This document shows, in pieces, positions 42,416 to 54,909 of a DNA stretch of 64,000 nucleotides (within the stretch, counting starts at the first letter, position 1; each line of letters starts with the position of its first letter). The translations under genes were made by a program, and so were the position numbers. The notes beneath the pieces were generated by a model. The model saw nothing but the letters and a program-made list of their open reading frames with translations. It was not told the DNA's origin and searched no databases. The DNA is from a virus. Its lineage: Duplodnaviria; Caudoviricetes. The stretch lies in IMG/VR virus record IMGVR_UViG_3300042885_001472; one strand, written 5' to 3'.

Positions 42416-42519
42416 CATTGCTTATAACGTTTTGCAGCTAATAAATCGGCTTGCTGTTTATTAGGTGCGGTTATAGGTATGTGTTTTTTGCGTAGGAATT
42501 AACAACTAAAATTATAAAT

Positions 42520-42687
42520 ATGAAAATTAAAATTAAAACCGAAAAAGTAGAATTTGAATTTGATGATGAGAAAATTTTTCAAATGGGAAATTATTTTGAA
42601 AAGGAAAATAAAGCTGTTTTAGAATTTCTAAAGGAGTGTATTCAAAAGGTAAGTGAGGAATCGATTAAAATTAATAAACGTGAGTAG
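42520..42687 (+). CDS. Cassette hypothetical protein (55 aa, below the ORF-track cut-off)
   Basis: MKIKIKTEKVEFEFDDEKIF...KINKRE*; unit 42470-42715. Confidence 0.6.
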   Translation: MKIKIKTEKVEFEFDDEKIFQMGNYFEKENKAVLEFLKECIQKVSEESIKINKRE

Positions 42688-42772
42688 TGCGGTGGGTAAA
42701 AACATTACCTATAACGGTTTGCAGCTTTGAGCCGTTTAAACGAATATTAATTTAAAACAATAATTAACGAAT

Positions 42773-43000
42773 ATGAAAAATGAAACAATAAAAAATGGCT
42801 TAAAGGTGCTGTTAGTAGCTGTTATTTTTTGCGGTTGTGATACTACTGTAAGGAAAAATTTAACAGGTGAAAAATATTTTGGAAGTGATATAGAAGTGCT
42901 TGTAGTCGATAGTTGTGAGTATCTGATTTTTGCTTCTGGTACGAGAAGTGTAACGCATAAGGGGAACTGTAAATATTGTGCAGAACGTAGCAAAAAATAA
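42773..43000 (+). CDS. Cassette-encoded putative small lipoprotein
   Basis: MKNETIKNGLKVLLVAVIFCG-C signal/lipobox; C-terminal THKGNCKYC; paralogue of 52583..52846. Confidence 0.65.
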   Translation: MKNETIKNGLKVLLVAVIFCGCDTTVRKNLTGEKYFGSDIEVLVVDSCEYLIFASGTRSVTHKGNCKYCAERSKK

Positions 43001-45081: not shown

Positions 45082-45170
45082 AACTATTATATATAAACAA
45101 GTATAGTCTAAACCCTTTAATAACAATACTTTGAACCAAAAAATTATAAAGATTTGTAAATAAAAGTTTA
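45082..45170. repeat. attI-like array-terminal site, copy 1
   Basis: AAC-TATTATATATAAACAAGTATAGTCTAAACCCTTTAA...GATTTGT..AAAAGTTTA; 83/89 identical to 54821-54909 by manual alignment; no hairpin. Confidence 0.75.
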
Positions 45171-45251
45171 ATTATCTTTTAAAGATGAAAATCACTAAAT
45201 AAAATTAGGAAAATATAAATTAATATGTTATCTTTGTAAAAAATATATGTT

Positions 45252-45710
45252 ATGGAAAGTTTAGATGTTAAAAATTTTTGTTTAGTTATATTAGGTAAAC
45301 AAAATGACGTTAAAAAAGAGTTAGAATTTATTTCTGAAGGACCAATAAATTATGTTGAGGGAAAATATTTATTCATCGCAACTTTTAAATCAACATTGTT
45401 CGCGAAGGATATTGAAATCTTTTTAAGTAGTTCCAATATAAATTATATCTTATCTGAAATGGTTTCTTCATTATTTTCGGCTGATCTTGGTGAGTTTAAT
45501 TCAGCACTATTTAATTTAAATCAAAATACTAATATTTTTGAGAAAAAAATTGTTGTAGATTATACTGGAACTGAAGAAGCTGTAATTATTGATGAAGAAG
45601 ATGAAAATTTAACTTTAGATGAATTATTGGATTTAGTGTCTGAAATAGGATTGGATAAATTAACAAGTAAACAAAAAGAACTTTTAAATAAATTTTCACT
45701 AAATAAATAA
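45252..45710 (+). CDS. Hypothetical protein
   Basis: 152 aa; TATCTTTG promoter element at 45229-45236. Confidence 0.7.
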   Translation: MESLDVKNFCLVILGKQNDVKKELEFISEGPINYVEGKYLFIATFKSTLFAKDIEIFLSSSNINYILSEMVSSLFSADLGEFNSALFNLNQNTNIFEKKIVVDYTGTEEAVIIDEEDENLTLDELLDLVSEIGLDKLTSKQKELLNKFSLNK

Positions 45711-45711
45711 T

Positions 45712-46521
45712 ATGGTAAATAAAAAATTCATTAATGGTCAAGAAGATTCAATTTCAAATTACCTTAAGGATGTAAAAAAGTGTGGTGTTATTAACACTGA
45801 CACTGAAGTTGAATTAGCTAAAAGAATACAAGAAGGTGATCAAGTTGCCGCTGATGAATTGGCTAAAGCTAATCTTAGATTTGTTATATCAATCGCCAAA
45901 GAATATCAAAATCAGGGATTACCATTAGCGGATTTAATTTCAGAAGGTAATTACGGATTGATTATAGCGGCTCAACGATTTGACTATACAAAAGGGTTTA
46001 AATTTATTTCTTACGCTGTATGGTGGATAAAACAATCTATTATGCAGTCACTAAACGAACATTCCAGAACTGTTCGGTTACCAACTAATGTTATCAATAA
46101 ACTTTCTAAAATTAAGAAAGAGATAGATGCGTTTGAGCAAAAGTTTGAAAGAAAACCAGTATTAGGTGATGAAATTGAAATGGTATTCCACCCAACAGTG
46201 ATATCGTTAAGTACAACAATAAATGATGATGGTGATGAGTTAATTGAAGTTATTGAAGATCCTAACATTAATAGTCCGGACAATGATCCATATAATGAGT
46301 ACGACATTAAAGAACGTATGAATAAAATTCTATCAATTCTTTCTGAAAGGGAGAAAAATGTGATTGAGTTATATTATGGTATAAATGGATCACCTTTAAC
46401 ATTGGAAGAAATTGGTGAGGAATATGATTTAACTAAAGAAAGAATTCGTCAAATTAAAGAAAAATGTATCAGAAAACTTAGAAATAATGCTGATGTCTTA
46501 CAACAACAATTATTTGGATAA
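45712..46521 (+). CDS. rpoD: RNA polymerase sigma70-family factor, Bacteroidota primary-sigma-like
   Basis: ANLRFVISIAKEYQNQG, DLISEGNYGL, GFKFISYAVWWIKQSI, RTVRLP, region 4 LTLEEIGEEYDLTKERIRQIKEK; no region 1.1. Confidence 0.92.
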   Translation: MVNKKFINGQEDSISNYLKDVKKCGVINTDTEVELAKRIQEGDQVAADELAKANLRFVISIAKEYQNQGLPLADLISEGNYGLIIAAQRFDYTKGFKFISYAVWWIKQSIMQSLNEHSRTVRLPTNVINKLSKIKKEIDAFEQKFERKPVLGDEIEMVFHPTVISLSTTINDDGDELIEVIEDPNINSPDNDPYNEYDIKERMNKILSILSEREKNVIELYYGINGSPLTLEEIGEEYDLTKERIRQIKEKCIRKLRNNADVLQQQLFG

Positions 46522-46666
46522 ATATGAATAAATTTAATGAGTGGTGGAACGAAGTTTTATTCGTTATTAATATTAGTATCTTTGAAATATCTGTTGATAA
46601 TGGAATGATTTGTTCATTGATATTGATAATTTTTGGATTAATGAGTTTATAAATAAAACAAATAAT

Positions 46667-46846
46667 ATGAAAAAAGACATTGAAATTAGTGTAACTGAAA
46701 CAAAATCAGTTGAACATGTTAGTTATGAAGAGTTGTATAACTCATTAAGAGATAGAATTAGATTAATTCAACAACTTAATGATAAATACGAAAATGATGA
46801 AGATTTTGGTAGAAATTTAAGAAAATTATTGAATTTAGGTGGGTAA
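46667..46846 (+). CDS. Hypothetical protein
   Basis: Probable ATG 46667; ends GGTGGGTAA just before the first hairpin of array 2. Confidence 0.55.
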   Translation: MKKDIEISVTETKSVEHVSYEELYNSLRDRIRLIQQLNDKYENDEDFGRNLRKLLNLGG

Positions 46847-46933
46847 AAATATTGATACTAACGGTATCGGACTTGGCGATGTTGCCGAAAACAAATGTTA
46901 ATTAGAATTACTAAACTTTAAATTATAGATAAA

Positions 46934-49511: not shown

Positions 49512-49774
49512 TTTTATTTGCCACTAACGGTTGAGTGTATGAGAAGGTTTGCTTTGTTAAACTTTCAAATTACCACCGACCTTTGTAGCTAACTTTCTTA
49601 TACACCTTGTTATAACCAGTACGGATAAATTAGCACTGAACTTGATACGAAGAACGAATAAAAACTTTTTAAAAATGTGCGGTGGAAAACTTGATTAATT
49701 TAAAAATAAGTAGTATATCTGTAATATCATAATAATAATAAACTAATAAACTAATAAACTAAAAAATTAAACAA

Positions 49775-50368
49775 ATGGCAAAATTTATTGAAACAATTTA
49801 TCCAACTATTGAAGATAGAGTAAGTAGATGGGAAACAATGGGAATGTTACATATAGTTAAATCTGATGATTCTAAAAAATTGGTGGCGATGGCACTTGAT
49901 GCAACTGCAATATATCTTACAGAATTTAATTTTAAAAATTTTGATAACGATACAAAAACGGTTTTAATACCAGTAATTGTAAGAATTTTCAACGAAACAA
50001 ACAAAGATTTCACATTAGAAACATTAACTAAATCAGTTAGAAGAATAATTGAAGATTTTGTGGAAAAATATGAAGAAGCAAAACCTAAGTTTAACCCATT
50101 AACTTCCGAAAGAGATGATGATGCTGAATTTATTGCGTTATATTGCGAAAACTATTCTTTTGATGAAAACAAAATTAAAATTAAATTTAAAATTACATTT
50201 TGGAAAGATATTCCAGAAAGAACATTTATAATTGATGATACCAACTTCTTTCCAAAATATTTTATGGGGTTGGATGGTATTTTATATGAAAATTATGGAA
50301 CAGAGGAAAAACCAATGTGGGAAAATGTTTTTGATAGTGACTATGAGATTGAAATTGTTAATCTTTAA
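49775..50368 (+). CDS. Cassette protein resembling the N-terminal region of T4-like major capsid proteins
   Basis: RWETMGMLH...MALDATAIYL...IPVIVRIF parallels gp23-type KW..GLL.GL...A.LLEN.A..L...P.VRR.F (recalled pattern, not searched). Confidence 0.4.
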   Translation: MAKFIETIYPTIEDRVSRWETMGMLHIVKSDDSKKLVAMALDATAIYLTEFNFKNFDNDTKTVLIPVIVRIFNETNKDFTLETLTKSVRRIIEDFVEKYEEAKPKFNPLTSERDDDAEFIALYCENYSFDENKIKIKFKITFWKDIPERTFIIDDTNFFPKYFMGLDGILYENYGTEEKPMWENVFDSDYEIEIVNL

Positions 50369-50570
50369 GGTGGGAAATTTTTAAAAAGTTTTTCTCACAG
50401 AACTTAAATATGGAACACGAATGTAGTATTGGTTATAACGGTTGGGTGTATGAGAAGGTTTGCTTAGATGAACTTTCAAATTATACACAACTGTTATAAC
50501 CAGTACGGTTAATTTAAGATAAAACTTGATTAAATGAATAATAATTAGTATATTTGTAAAAAAATAAATT

Positions 50571-51044
50571 ATGGAAAACATATTAAAAAGGCTTGAATAT
50601 AAAATATTTAAGAAATACGAAAAAAAGATTGAAGATGTAAAAGATTATGTATGGGATTATAAAAAAATCAATAATGACATTACTCAACTTGAACACAATG
50701 AAACATTGAGTCGTTTTGTGTTATATTATATGAAAGAATTTAACTTAGATGTAATAATTACATCTGGAGAAATTTGCACTATATTTCAAAACTTTAGTAA
50801 TTTTTATATTATTGGTGAAAACGATGTATATAATTATAAAAGATATAAATCTGACATTAGTAATGATTTTGAACCATTTTACCTTATCAAAGAAGAAGAT
50901 AATAATATTGGGGTTGTAATTAAAACCAATATTAGAATTGAACCGAATAATATTATACTAACAAACACTGAAGGTTCTAATTATAAAATAATTGATGTTT
51001 GGAATTTACCAAGTGTTAAACTAACTGAATGTTTTAAAAAATAA
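50571..51044 (+). CDS. Cassette hypothetical protein
   Basis: 157 aa; TATATTTG promoter at 50549; two-gene unit 50493-51405. Confidence 0.7.
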   Translation: MENILKRLEYKIFKKYEKKIEDVKDYVWDYKKINNDITQLEHNETLSRFVLYYMKEFNLDVIITSGEICTIFQNFSNFYIIGENDVYNYKRYKSDISNDFEPFYLIKEEDNNIGVVIKTNIRIEPNNIILTNTEGSNYKIIDVWNLPSVKLTECFKK

Positions 51045-51048
51045 AGAT

Positions 51049-51387
51049 ATGGAAAAAGAAAATTTAAAAACTGGGGTGTACCTCATAAAAGCGGATAGTA
51101 AAGATTATTCCTTAACAAAAGAGAAAGAAGAGAAAATAAATTCATTAGAAATTAATGAAGAACATAAAGATTTTTTCAAAAATCTTTTTAGAGAAGAACC
51201 AACACCAAAAGGTTATGATTTATTAGTTGAATTGGTTGGTCAAAATCCTTTTTTAAAAATCAAAAGTGTTAAAAATAATGATACTGGTGAAAATATTACT
51301 GAACAATTTACTGATAAAAATATTGATGATGTTAATTCTTTATGGTTATTTACTAAACATTTAGAATGGGTTCTTCAGAACATATAA
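51049..51387 (+). CDS. Cassette hypothetical protein
   Basis: 112 aa; second gene of unit 50493-51405. Confidence 0.7.
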   Translation: MEKENLKTGVYLIKADSKDYSLTKEKEEKINSLEINEEHKDFFKNLFREEPTPKGYDLLVELVGQNPFLKIKSVKNNDTGENITEQFTDKNIDDVNSLWLFTKHLEWVLQNI

Positions 51388-51532
51388 CGTAGTATTGGTT
51401 ATAACGTTTTGCAGCTTTAAGAAGTGGCTGCCTAACGGAAAGTTCAAAGTTCGCACAATGTTTATGGCAGCTTTTGCCAAACCGCTGTTATGTGCTGGGC
51501 GGATTATCAGTACTAATTTTAATTTAAAAACG

Positions 51533-51745
51533 ATGTACAAAGCATTTCAAAACAAAAAGTATTATTTGGCGTTTAACCGATTTCCTAAAACTGCCAAAAA
51601 AGTAGGGGGTGTGCATAAAGCATATTCAACAGGATTTAGAAAATGGAATTCTGATGATATGATTACCTACGCAATAGTTGTCGGCACATTCAGGATTATG
51701 TTTGGAATTAAAACGCCAAATTATACTTGTGATGAAGGATGTTAG
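51533..51745 (+). CDS. Cassette hypothetical protein
   Basis: ATG 51533 (the longer track ORF runs through the hairpin); unit 51487-51758. Confidence 0.6.
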   Translation: MYKAFQNKKYYLAFNRFPKTAKKVGGVHKAYSTGFRKWNSDDMITYAIVVGTFRIMFGIKTPNYTCDEGC

Positions 51746-51815
51746 CCTTGCACATAACGCTTTGCAGCTTTGAGCCGTTTACCAAATATTAATAACAAAA
51801 AAATAAATAACGAAT

Positions 51816-51995
51816 ATGCCAAAAACAATACATGCAAAAAGAGAAGATTTAATTTGCGGAAAAATAGACTTAGCACAAGATATGGCTATTAAATTAAAAA
51901 GTATCGAATTACTTGAATTATTAGATAGTATCAGATATGATGCTGTAAGAATGGAACAAAAACTTATTAGCAGAAAACAGGAATCAAAAATATAA
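51816..51995 (+). CDS. Cassette hypothetical protein (59 aa) starting at a hairpin-loop ATG
   Basis: MPKTIHAKREDLICGKIDL...QESKI*; same AACGAATATG context as 42773 and 53389. Confidence 0.55.
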   Translation: MPKTIHAKREDLICGKIDLAQDMAIKLKSIELLELLDSIRYDAVRMEQKLISRKQESKI

Positions 51996-52176
51996 ATAAC
52001 AGAACCACCGCTTGCAGGTAACGGTTTGCAGATTGCCGAAGGTGGCGAAATCGAAGCACTAAACTTGATATAAAAACGAATGTTAAACCGAAGCACAACA
52101 GTTGATATTAGCACTAAACCGCCACTTTTGGCAATGTGCTGTTATAAGCCGTTTTTCTTCACAAATCAAAAAATAA

Positions 52177-52516
52177 ATGGATTTACGAATTGAATACATT
52201 TTCAGAGAAGAAATGAAAAGAGATACATCTTTTCAAGAAAAAAAAAACTGGGTTAAGTTTGCTTTTCGGAACAAACAAATACTCTAAACAAGAAATGAGA
52301 GAAACTTGGGATAGAGGTATTAAACTTGGAATAGAAATAGGATTGCGAAAAGCAAGTTTAGAAGGACAAAGGATTGAACTTAATCACAATACACCCGAAG
52401 GAAAGCATAAGGAATTTCTTGAAAAGTTTTATCAATTGGCTGATGAATATAAATGTGCTGTCCAATTTCATCTCGAATTTGGAATGGTAGTAGTTGCTCG
52501 TCAAAATGGCTTATAA
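52177..52516 (+). pseudogene. Cassette gene frameshifted at an A10 tract (or slippage-controlled)
   Basis: ATG 52177 joins ORF 52259..52516 in frame if A10 at 52238-52247 were A9; unit 52141-52517. Confidence 0.55.
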
Positions 52517-52582
52517 CGGTTTGCAGATAAGCGAAGGCAAAGATTTAGAAACGAAAATTTTAACTTAAAAACAAATATAATT

Positions 52583-52846
52583 ATGAAAACGAGAACATCA
52601 TTAAACCACAGAACCTTTGCTTTTGCTTATGTGCTGTTAGTAGCTGTTATTTTTTGCGGCTGTGAGGATATGAATAGAGCCGAAGAACGCTCAAAAGTAT
52701 TTAAAACAGCAGTAGAAGTTAATGGCTACCAAATATCAATAATAGAATTTGATAGTTGTCAATACTTAATATCAGGCGTTGGCTACTCACAAATGATGAC
52801 ACATAAAGGGAACTGTAAATTTTGTACAGAACGTAGCAAAAAATAA
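52583..52846 (+). CDS. Cassette-encoded putative small lipoprotein
   Basis: ...FAYVLLVAVIFCG-C; C-terminal THKGNCKFC; unit 52636-52857. Confidence 0.65.
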   Translation: MKTRTSLNHRTFAFAYVLLVAVIFCGCEDMNRAEERSKVFKTAVEVNGYQISIIEFDSCQYLISGVGYSQMMTHKGNCKFCTERSKK

Positions 52847-52976
52847 TTGCTACTAACGTTTTGCAGCTAATAGACGGGCTGGAAACTTATATAATTCCGC
52901 CTGTTTATTAGGTGCTGTTATAGGTAGTGCCAAATATAAATACTAAAAGAATATTAATAATTAAAAAATAGAAATA

Positions 52977-53318
52977 ATGAACTTAAAAGAATTTGTAAAA
53001 TTTACATTTGAAAAATACGAAAAAAACGGGTATTGTTTTAGACCTAGAATAGTTTGTAATGATGGGTTTTCAATGAGTGTACAAGGTAGTAACGCATTAT
53101 ATTGTAGACCGAGAATTACACAAGATTGGTATGATAAAATGGAAATAGGTTATCCATCAGCAGAAGAAATTGATATAATAGAATTTGCTGAGGATATTAC
53201 AAAACCAACTGATACCGTTTATGGTTATGTGCCATGTGAACTTATTGAAAAAGTTATTTTAAAACACGGTGGTATTAACTCGGTTGAAACATTTAAAGCT
53301 TCTAAGGATATTAAATAG
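52977..53318 (+). CDS. Cassette conserved phage hypothetical protein
   Basis: CNDGFSMSVQGS..YC.PR...EIGYPS...PTDTVYGYVP...KHGG; unit 52917-53332. Confidence 0.7.
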   Translation: MNLKEFVKFTFEKYEKNGYCFRPRIVCNDGFSMSVQGSNALYCRPRITQDWYDKMEIGYPSAEEIDIIEFAEDITKPTDTVYGYVPCELIEKVILKHGGINSVETFKASKDIK

Positions 53319-53388
53319 GCATTACCTATAACGGTTTGCAGCTTTGAGCCGTTTAAACGAATATTAATTTAAAACTAAAACAACGAAT

Positions 53389-53484
53389 ATGAATAACAAT
53401 GAAATAGAAAATGGCGCAAAGGTGATGTTGGTACCAGTAGCCAAATTAAAATTTAAAAACAATAACTTAAAAATACAATTATGA
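53389..53484 (+). CDS. Hairpin-encoded leader peptide (31 aa) whose TGA overlaps the next ATG
   Basis: MNNNEIENGAKVMLVPVAKLKFKNNNLKIQL*; ATGA overlap at 53481-53484. Confidence 0.45.
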   Translation: MNNNEIENGAKVMLVPVAKLKFKNNNLKIQL

Positions 53485-53741
53485 AAAACAACAAAGAAAA
53501 ATCGTACCAATACGCATCGATGATACAAGAGGCAATAGCTGAATTGATTTCAGAACACGAATTATTAGCTGATTTTGATGATGAAAATAACGCAACTGCA
53601 TTTTTACACGCATTAGCTAATGTAGTGCCATGTAATATTTATAAGAAATTAACTAATGATAATACTGATATTTTAGGTTTTAATCATATTGCTAATAGAT
53701 TAGTATATCAATTTACAAAGCAGGACGAAGCCGAAGCGTAA
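53481..53741 (+). CDS. Cassette hypothetical protein
   Basis: 86 aa; unit 53427-53765. Confidence 0.7.
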   Translation: MKNNKEKSYQYASMIQEAIAELISEHELLADFDDENNATAFLHALANVVPCNIYKKLTNDNTDILGFNHIANRLVYQFTKQDEAEA

Positions 53742-53885
53742 ACGCCAAGGGCTATTGGTACTAACGGTCGGCAATATGAAACGGTTGCCCTTGTAAGACG
53801 TTTCAAAATATGATGCAGTTTTCTGGCAACTGTTTTATATTGCTTGTTATAGCCAGTTAATTTTAATCAATAAAAACGAAAAAAG

Positions 53886-54086
53886 ATGGAAGCACCTAAA
53901 TTAAATGAAGTATGGCATGTTCAATATGGAGAAGCCATTGGTAAAGAATACAATATCCTTGTAAGAATAGATGAGGATAAAAAAGAGTTAAATCCACCGA
54001 ATTGGAGAAGAAACAAGTATAAATGTGAGCATAAAAGTAAGGAACTGATGGTAGGTGGAAATATGTTCATTGAACGGTTTTCTTAA
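53886..54086 (+). CDS. Cassette hypothetical protein
   Basis: 66 aa; unit 53846-54097. Confidence 0.65.
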   Translation: MEAPKLNEVWHVQYGEAIGKEYNILVRIDEDKKELNPPNWRRNKYKCEHKSKELMVGGNMFIERFS

Positions 54087-54297
54087 TTGGCTATAACGGT
54101 TGGGTGTATGAGAAGGTTTGCTTAGATGAACTTTCAAATTATGCACAAATGCTGATAGCAAACTTTCTTATACACCTTGTTATGTGTAGGTGTGGTTAAT
54201 TAAGGTAGAATGTTCAATTGGATAACTGAACAAAAATTTTAAAAGAAAAAGAAAGGTGGATTTTTATTATTTTAATATTTATATATAAAAGAAAACA

Positions 54298-54747
54298 ATG
54301 AAAGATTTGAAACAATTTATTAAAACAACCATACGAGAGTTTTTGAATGAGAGTTCAATTGGGAATATTGAATATAAAATAACATATTCACCACCAGAAA
54401 ATATTCATGTTGTAGCAAAGATTGATGGTGTTATAATTGGAACATTATCTATAATAGATGATAGTCATTTCTTATCAACAGAAGATGAACCAACATTTAC
54501 AATTATGTCAGTATTTGTAGATAAAGAATATAGACAAAAAGGTATTTATATAAATTTAATCAAATATTTTTTACTAAATAATAAATATGGTGTCAAATCG
54601 TTATATTCTTCAAAAGAACCAGAATTTGATACAGAAAAAAGAACATCGGTTGCTGATGGTTTTTGGAAAAATGTTTATACAAATCAAAATAAATATGGTG
54701 TAAATGTTGATAAAATAGATAATGATTATGAAATTTCTTTAAAATAA
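54298..54747 (+). CDS. GNAT-family acetyltransferase-like protein (last cassette of array 2)
   Basis: FTIMSVFVDKEYRQKGIYINLI acetyl-CoA-binding motif A; ADGFWK; leader MKDLKQFIKTTIREFLNES. Confidence 0.7.
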   Translation: MKDLKQFIKTTIREFLNESSIGNIEYKITYSPPENIHVVAKIDGVIIGTLSIIDDSHFLSTEDEPTFTIMSVFVDKEYRQKGIYINLIKYFLLNNKYGVKSLYSSKEPEFDTEKRTSVADGFWKNVYTNQNKYGVNVDKIDNDYEISLK

Positions 54748-54820
54748 GTGCGGTGGTATTTTTCTTTTAAAATTTCCAACCGAAATATTGATTAGAAGGA
54801 TGAACGGAACACTTACACAT

Positions 54821-54909
54821 AACTATTATATATAAACAAGTATGGTCTAAACCCTTTAAAATTAATACTTTGAACCAAAAAATTATAAAGATTTGTTAAG
54901 AAAAGTTTA
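54821..54909. repeat. attI-like array-terminal site, copy 2
   Basis: Near-identical to 45082-45170 and begins at the AAC core of the last cassette. Confidence 0.75.

Follow-up and report, generated by a model that had tools for sequence, protein, structure and literature searches.

A conserved frame for exchangeable cargo genes in the integron-like arrays of a T4-like phage

We analysed a 64,000-nucleotide stretch of DNA (the window) from the IMG/VR virus record IMGVR_UViG_3300042885_001472. The window belongs to a large T4-like phage with integron-like gene arrays, in which two units, unit 1 (49609-50439) and unit 2 (54179-54823), each enclose a gene between the left and right arms of a perfect inverted repeat (IR-L and IR-R), with a G-rich box just inside each arm. 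A sequence-only reading had taken these units for snapshots of cassette birth, in which an empty cassette acquired a gene at a duplicated GGTGG. The analysis does not support this possibility; the units have an old and stable design instead. The non-coding frame around the gene, hereafter the chassis, recurs in conserved form at more than 100 loci from viruses and metagenomes (L labels below), and the cargo it holds is unrelated from locus to locus. Our leading reading, which we hold at even chances, is that both units are normal, complete and mobile cassettes of an integron-like array, representing two homologous families of one chassis whose arms form the base of a folded rod.

The two units and the arrays that hold them

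The window has a GC content of 29%, carries nearly all of its open reading frames (ORFs) of at least 100 aa on one strand, and matches ribonucleotide reductase (RNR), DnaB, a baseplate wedge protein, a Hoc-like protein and SbcC/gp46 with an intein. A phage GenBank collection returned trivial matches only. Two arrays of small genes, with TAAC...GTTA hairpins between the genes, span 40.86-54.82 kb; no integrase was found in the 64-kb window. The hairpins at 49525-49616, 50436-50500 and 54094-54185 are folded imperfect palindromes with inverse core boxes. Both arrays have the same right end, a conserved non-hairpin sequence of about 90 nt (TATTATATATAAACAAGTAT...) that resembles an attI site and lies at 54824-54909, with a copy at 45085-45170.

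Unit 1, like all the features described here, lies on the + strand. Upstream of it is an attC-like hairpin (TAAC ... GTTATAAC; 49525-49616), which is predicted to fold as the apical part of the rod. The unit itself begins with the left core and its extension, GTTATAACCAGTAC (49609-49622; family consensus GTTATAcACAGTAC), which pairs with 50426-50439. IR-L, AAAAACTTTTTAAAAAT (49660-49676), has a mean pairwise identity of 95% over 32 cassettes and is followed by the left G-rich box, GTGCGGTGG (49677-49685; family consensus GTGnGGTGG). Next comes a leader of type B (49686-49774) with a Bacteroidota-style promoter-like motif (TTG at 49691-49693 and TATATCTG at 49714-49721), which may function as a promoter. 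The cargo (49775-50368) is a 197-aa ORF without a Pfam match and without a capsid-targeting-like N-terminal leader. Directly 3′ of its stop codon lies the right G-rich box, GGTGGG (50369-50374), and then IR-R, ATTTTTAAAAAGTTTTT (50377-50393). The unit is closed at 50394-50439 by the right flank (CTCACAGAACTT..., GAACACGAAT) and the right core extension, GTATTGGTTATAAC.

Unit 2 has the same layout, with an attC-like hairpin upstream (54094-54185) that moves together with the unit. Its left core and extension, GTTATGTGTAGGTGT (54179-54193), pairs with 54809-54823, so that in this unit the outer inverted repeat that extends the recombination core is GTTATGTGTAGGTGT/ACACTTACACATAAC, as it is GTTATAACCAGTAC/GTATTGGTTATAAC in unit 1. 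IR-L is AAATTTTAAAAGAAAAA (54234-54250; 18 nt long in most relatives) and the left G-rich box is GGTGG (54255-54259; family form GAAGGGTGGG). A motif resembling T4 late promoters, ATTTATATATAAA (54277-54289), is conserved upstream of genes of the capsid-targeting type and may have a late-promoter-like role. The cargo (54298-54747) starts with MKDLKQFIKTTIREFLNE and encodes a 149-aa GNAT acetyltransferase (PF00583, E 7e-7). Directly 3′ of the stop codon is the right G-rich box, GTGCGGTGG (54748-54756; family form GTG(C/G)GT(T/G)GG), followed by IR-R, TTTTTCTTTTAAAATTT (54759-54775), and by the right flank with the core extension ACACTTACACATAAC (54776-54823), where the array ends. A compact form of the unit design, GTTATAGGTATGTGTTTTTT-GCGTAGG ... 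gene ... TAG-TGCGGTGGG-TAAAAACATTACCTATAAC, is found at 42470-42715.

A repeat search confirmed the two 17-nt inverted repeats of the sequence-only reading, 49660-49676/50377-50393 (repeat I8) and 54234-54250/54759-54775 (repeat I11), as 100% complementary, and the GGTGG copies that it had placed at 49681, 50369, 54255 and 54752, as well as those next to stop codons at 42691 and 46838, were all present. The arms are low-complexity A/T tracts, each with a palindrome, TTTTTAAAAA or TTTTAAAA, inside. The 9-mer GTGCGGTGG has three copies in the window (42687, 49677 and 54748), each at a cassette-gene boundary, whereas about 0.02 would be expected by chance from the base composition. Four of the approximately 30 array genes have GGTGG within 10 nt of the stop codon, against about 0.4 expected from its window-wide frequency of 86 per 64 kb (Poisson estimate, p ~1e-3).

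Several smaller features of the arrays were seen. The 65-nt hairpin at 50436-50500 derives from the 92-nt type seen at 49525 and 54094 by a deletion between two TAT(G/A)CAC repeats. The segment 3′ of the first attI-like site (45086-46862) has a gene of the sigma-70 family (45712-46521; regions 1.2, 2, 3 and 4) and terminates in GGTGGGTAAAAATATTGATACTAAC, which has the form of a cassette 3′ end and includes a G box. At locus L067 the chassis is the terminal cassette, and its TAAC is followed by TATTATATAT..., which resembles the attI-like site of the window; thus, the array-end sequence is common to different phages. The left G box of unit 1, GTGCG|GTGG (49677-49685), resembles the GGTGC(T/G)|GTTA junction at the right end of the attC hairpins of this system (42455-42475, 42803-42815 and 52909-52921), and the right junction, TAA|GGTGGG, resembles their left end, TAAC|GGTTGGG. 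These weak resemblances could reflect a half-site relic or a shared protein contact. GYGGTGG might also have a Chi-like role, and GGTGCG may resemble the XerC arm of dif; we regard both as leads only.

A conserved chassis with unrelated cargo

Across the family, the chassis runs from the core extension (GTTAT...) through a 35-nt flank, IR-L, the G-rich box and a promoter-like leader to the cargo, after which come a second G-rich box, often supplying the stop codon, IR-R, a flank and the core extension (...ATAAC). One scan with the unit-1 right flank, including IR-R, found 7 viral and 86 metagenome stretches. Both arms are present in 54 loci, with an arm spacing of 315-810 nt, and in these IR-L (AAAAACTTTTTAAAAAT) followed by GTG(C/T)GGTGG is almost invariant. 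Unit-2-type frames with differing bodies were found in L006, L009-L011, L014-L016 and L023. The two frame types are homologous over their full length, from the core extension, TTAAGGTAGAATGTT, IR-L, G box, ATTTATATATAAA and leader to the stop codon, G box, IR-R, flank and core extension. The mean pairwise identity is 0.95 for IR-L, 0.75-0.82 for the flanks, 0.76 for the leader, 0.68 over the opening 66 nt of the coding sequence and 0.55 for the body, the last of which we judged, without a control, to be about the background for unrelated AT-rich sequence under the alignment settings used. IR-L is thus the most conserved element on the left-hand side, although the search made no selection for it. 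The design occurs in lake, sediment and digester metagenomes, a spread that argues for an old and stable architecture and not for a transitional state. A direct repeat, TTGAAACACGAAT, is present in both flanks, adjoining IR-L on the left and the core extension on the right (in the window, GAAGAACGAAT at 49646-49659 and GAACACGAAT at 50412-50421); it could be an accessory protein site.

Fifty of the 54 cargo proteins (44 recognized by regular expression and 6 by eye) start with MSKEMREQIDKVKNFKQFVNE or MEnDKKLKNFIKTTIREFLNE, a leader of approximately 20 residues ending in L/V-N-E, and then diverge completely. Their bodies fall into 23 clusters without a blastp relation to one another, and the same body can stand behind either type of leader. 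The GNAT protein of unit 2 is a typical member, with its MKDLKQFIKTTIREFLNE start and an N-terminal leader ending in L-N-E. The leader pattern TTAAGGTAGAATGTTNAATT yielded two spurious loci, L024 and L025.

This arrangement recalls the T4 internal proteins (IPI, IPII, IPIII and Alt), which likewise have a short conserved N-terminal leader with an L/I-X-E end in front of unrelated bodies that include an enzyme, as the GNAT protein does here. T4 Alt is an ADP-ribosyltransferase. Unlike the T4 proteins, the chassis genes have a leader, a candidate targeting sequence, of about 20 residues with a different sequence, and they lie in recombinase-type cassettes instead of at one fixed locus. In T4, L/I-X-E is the site after which gp21 cleaves, and apart from the targeting sequence the internal proteins are diverse, no other part of them being conserved (PMC9026906, PMC3012670); their genes form a hypervariable set (PMC3012670, PMC9026906). 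Related complete phage records of 319-349 kb with these cassette ends encode a Peptidase_S77 domain (G001, E 3.5e-8; G002, E 3.5e-9; G005, a weak match). The N-terminal leader is probably a T4-type capsid-targeting propeptide, on which the proteins would be packaged and cleaved, and the chassis would then serve as a platform on which exchangeable proteins are expressed and loaded into the head, to be injected together with the DNA.

At L091:3320-3700 (the same as L078), a gene with a capsid-targeting-like leader has a left G box, a leader, a right G box and IR-R, but no IR-L, and is not part of a TAAC/GTTA array; the gene module is present here either in a backbone (donor-like) form or as a decayed cassette. 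The sequence upstream of this gene was considered as a tRNA and rejected, since ARAGORN found none.

Unit 1 departs from the common pattern. Its 197-aa protein lacks the capsid-targeting-like N-terminal leader, and a different, host-type leader (AAAACTTGATTAA...TATATCTG) precedes the gene. It shares 83% identity with the leader of the next cassette in the array (50521-50567; repeat D6) and follows the G box in L067, L081 and L116 as well. These three loci hold untagged cargo in a variant of the unit-1 frame: 66 + 60 aa in L067, 116 + 67 + 60 aa in L081 and 138 + 66 aa in L116. The unit 1 ORF (49775-50368) fuses, in frame, two genes that stand apart in L116:1501-2127 (138 aa and 66 aa), where they lie in the same frame. 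Most of its database relatives are 124-145 aa long and span only its first two thirds. Homologues of the unit-1 gene also occur in ordinary phage operons (L112 and L115), where neither arms nor GGTGG or other G boxes are found. Thus, the inverted repeat and GGTGG are parts of the recipient frame and not of the gene.

Cassettes move as wholes, with boundaries exactly at the TAAC core. The upstream hairpin and unit 2 together (54083-54823) are 99.6% identical to L001:434-1174, and the flanks on both sides are unrelated; in L001 the unit sits in the middle of an array, with an ordinary attC hairpin after it. Because this match comprises the upstream hairpin and the unit, the hairpin that moves with the gene is the upstream one. 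Consistent with this assignment, an arm of the upstream hairpin is kept in the family consensus (ATACACCTT|GTTAT), one gene is followed by three different downstream hairpins in L014, L015 and L016, and the right array end is conserved. Recombination also acts within the chassis: L060 and L083 are mosaics that show homologous recombination between the two families, and L121 and L133 have right flanks of mixed type. The cargo, the leader type and the halves of the chassis are therefore reshuffled by recombination inside conserved segments. L054 has tandem right ends in one cassette, namely a first IR-R with a core end, approximately 250 nt of AT-rich sequence, and a second IR-R with a core end, which suggests an insertion or a partial cassette at the TAAC core.

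In several respects these arrays resemble those of bacterial integrons. Small genes lie between imperfect hairpins whose core boxes are inverse (xxTAAC ... GTTAxx), the boxes at the opening and the close of a gene region are complementary to each other, one cassette occurs in different arrays with exact core boundaries, and the arrays end in a conserved non-hairpin site. By contrast, the carrier here is a lytic-type T4-like phage, and the travelling hairpin is upstream of the gene, which is the reverse of the integron polarity. Furthermore, both units contain conserved promoter-like leaders (at the level of motifs), whereas integron cassettes are usually promoterless and expressed from Pc. Finally, the cassette ends remain complementary for 14-22 nt beyond the core, and in these two families the complementarity resumes as a stem of 17-18 nt approximately 40-50 nt further in. 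To our knowledge, such an extended, co-varying stem across the gene is not a feature of classical bacterial attC sites.

The role of the inverted-repeat arms

Both arms always lie within the same cassette. Excision of a cassette to a circle would make them contiguous with the attC-like hairpin, so that one rod of approximately 230 nt could form, in which an internal loop separates the IR stem from the core-extension stem and the attC stems follow, with the G-rich boxes marking the inner edge of the conserved module. When the circle junctions were folded with DNA parameters, the predicted energy was -42.2 kcal/mol for unit 2 (z = -8.4) and -28.7 kcal/mol for unit 1 (z = -3.1), with the arms as the basal stem in both. 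In L033, where cassettes of the same type are neighbours, the intergenic IR-R...attC...IR-L sequence folds likewise (-35.2 kcal/mol; z = -6.1). The arms of unit-1-type cassettes, unit-2-type cassettes and L122 differ in sequence, and yet every pair is perfectly complementary; in L122, T5A5 is replaced by T4A6 in one arm and by T6A4 in the other, so that the perfect repeat measures 18 nt. We infer that the arms extend, at its base, the folded recombination site of the cassette itself, and do not represent an earlier, gene-free hairpin into which a gene was taken up.

Two other arrangements of the arms were considered and rejected. A giant attC with the gene in its loop does not fit the polarity of unit 2, GTTA...TAAC, which is the reverse of that of attC, and reading the arms as a direct instead of an inverted repeat is incompatible with the order of the flanking elements. 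In addition, the non-Watson-Crick appositions in 49609-49622/50426-50439 and 54101-54120/54160-54178 are all G-T on the + (sense) strand and A-C on the - strand. Thus, the + strand should fold better, which would fit strand-selective hairpin recombination with reversed polarity.

Several observations weigh against a rod with the arms at its base. The rod, like the excised circle or single-stranded intermediate that would form it, is predicted, and it would contain a large, poorly paired internal loop (about 35/27 nt) between the core-extension stem and the IR stem. Hybrids with mismatched arms (L060 and L083), cassettes with one arm (L126 and L091/L078) and armless cassettes (L145 and L151) all exist, so the arms are not required for a cassette to exist. 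L113 has further genes between IR-R and the cassette end, and the IR-R and G box of L091, 3′ of a leader-type gene outside any array, could be that gene's own 3′ regulatory region. The arm sequences are also highly conserved, and a protein site can be told from a pairing constraint only by the few co-varying cases. As for the cargo, sequence resemblance is the basis of the proposed capsid-targeting role.

The most serious rival, though we think it unlikely, is a regulatory or protein-binding role like that of the PeSL modules of T4-like phages. PeSLs are conserved composite non-coding motifs of approximately 100 nt that flank ORFans in the variable regions of T4-like genomes and carry their own expression signals (PMC2839356, PMC4122927). 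They serve as exchange points for unrelated genes, and circular intermediates have been proposed (PMC2839356, PMC4122927). On such an account, the chassis flanks would be transcription signals (IR-R on the 3′ side; IR-L, the G box and the promoter on the 5′ side) that double as portable homology for recombination, and the complementarity of the arms would reflect a shared palindromic protein-binding or termination element instead of intramolecular folding. The likeness is considerable: conserved non-coding motifs, own expression signals and exchange of unrelated genes are common to both, and T4-like phages do shuffle ORFans by means of composite promoter/stem-loop motifs, even forming mini-circles (PMC2839356, PMC4122927). 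A palindrome (TTTTTAAAAA) lies within each arm, the TTGAAACACGAAT repeat is present in both flanks, the hybrids prove homologous exchange within these segments, and L091, though not part of an array, has a G box and leader in front of its gene and a G box and IR-R behind it. However, a PeSL is a single intergenic stem-loop with an early promoter that is exchanged by general homologous recombination, whereas the arms of the chassis stem lie on opposite sides of the gene, within attC-like core-bounded cassettes. A search for a simple intergenic stem-loop of the form IR-R-loop-IR-L gave zero matches, and arms made of A and T only would be a poor intrinsic terminator. Compensatory changes in the arms, between the unit-1 and unit-2 types and in L122, are not predicted by a shared protein site alone. 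A scan for sigma-70-type promoters and terminators did no better than on shuffled sequences and was uninformative.

Gene capture, and what the chassis means for these phages

The proposal of the sequence-only reading, that an empty palindromic cassette with a (GTGC)GGTGG apex captures a promoter and gene as DNA and duplicates GGTGG in doing so, with the two units as early stages of cassette formation, divides into two parts. The part concerning exchangeable cargo that moved as DNA was borne out. The same flanks enclose 23 unrelated body clusters and at least four cargo sets without the targeting-like N-terminal leader, and the cargo includes its promoter-like leader, which argues for exchange at the DNA level, as had been suggested. 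The part in which a cassette is born when an empty hairpin takes up a gene and GGTGG is duplicated was not, and we now think it improbable. The topology is admittedly compatible with it, as the arms lie outside and the direct G-rich boxes inside, just as a target-site-duplicating insertion into the apex of a hairpin or palindrome would leave them. The host-type leader starts right after the left G box in the at least four untagged cargo sets (the window and L116; L067/L081; L033; L023-A), the homologues in L112 and L115 have neither inverted repeat nor GGTGG, and the direct repeat reaches approximately 15-25 nt in L062 and L065 (ATG(T/C)GGTGGAAAATTT).

Against these points, no empty IR-GGTGG-IR allele was found in IMG/VR (for both arm types), in GTDB genomes or among the approximately 93 right-flank loci. 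The minimum arm spacing in the 54 two-arm loci is 315 nt, and the remaining right-flank loci have no left arm at short range. Nor do the boxes look like fresh duplications. Left and right boxes resemble each other no more within a locus than between loci (similarity 5.18 vs 5.07; permutation p = 0.22, n = 44), so they were not made per insertion; unlike true target-site duplications, these G repeats are motifs of the family and not of the locus, and no transposase-like gene is associated with them. Across the family, the right box mostly reads G(C/T)GTAGG(G)AAA, which includes the TAG stop codon, and is weakly conserved, so that only a minority of cassettes have an exact GGTGG/GGTGG pair. In L122 the arms have co-varied and are perfectly complementary, and G boxes are absent altogether. 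GGTGG does not mark the usual point of exchange either, because conservation on the left extends through the leader and the first ~20 codons in 50 of the 54 loci; as it reaches the first 66 nt of the coding sequence and the body falls to 0.55, the common swap point is the junction between leader and body. The architecture is, moreover, old and widespread. The locus thus shows no birth event.

A related idea, which we regard as quite improbable, is that the IR and G box constitute a second, nested recombination site, with the G boxes acting as crossover or capture points through which a promoter and gene would enter a mobile, hairpin-ended frame. If true, it would provide a DNA-level route for making integron-like cassettes, visible since the frame is conserved while the cargo turns over.

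We consider it very improbable that the stem acts at the RNA level, with IR-L pairing to IR-R in read-through transcripts as a processing or stability element around each cargo mRNA, much as the flanks of 16S rRNA pair. The conserved G-T (G-U in RNA) appositions do all lie on the sense strand, in the attC stems as well as in the core extension (CAGTAC/GTATTG), and co-variation is compatible with RNA pairing. However, the promoter-like leader of the cargo is inside the arms, and hence its transcripts would lack IR-L, and the strand bias is equally expected for strand-selective DNA hairpin recombination. Chance alignment of low-complexity A/T repeats with a common G-rich pentamer, as a 29% GC genome with A/T-tract arms and 86 copies of GGTGG might suggest, is refuted by the identical architecture in more than 100 independent loci, the 95% identity of IR-L and the excess of GTGCGGTGG.

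The chassis is thus a conserved non-coding frame through which more than 20 unrelated cargoes have passed. As its breakpoints are definable, and natural hybrids as well as non-cassette relatives of one cargo are available, the turnover of cargo in a cassette frame becomes directly testable. Its co-varying extended stem across the gene adds a structural feature that we do not know from bacterial attC sites. The chassis also links recombinase-type cassettes with a T4-style head-loading leader, which points to a possible stock of exchangeable, injected proteins in these phages, candidate anti-defence effectors.

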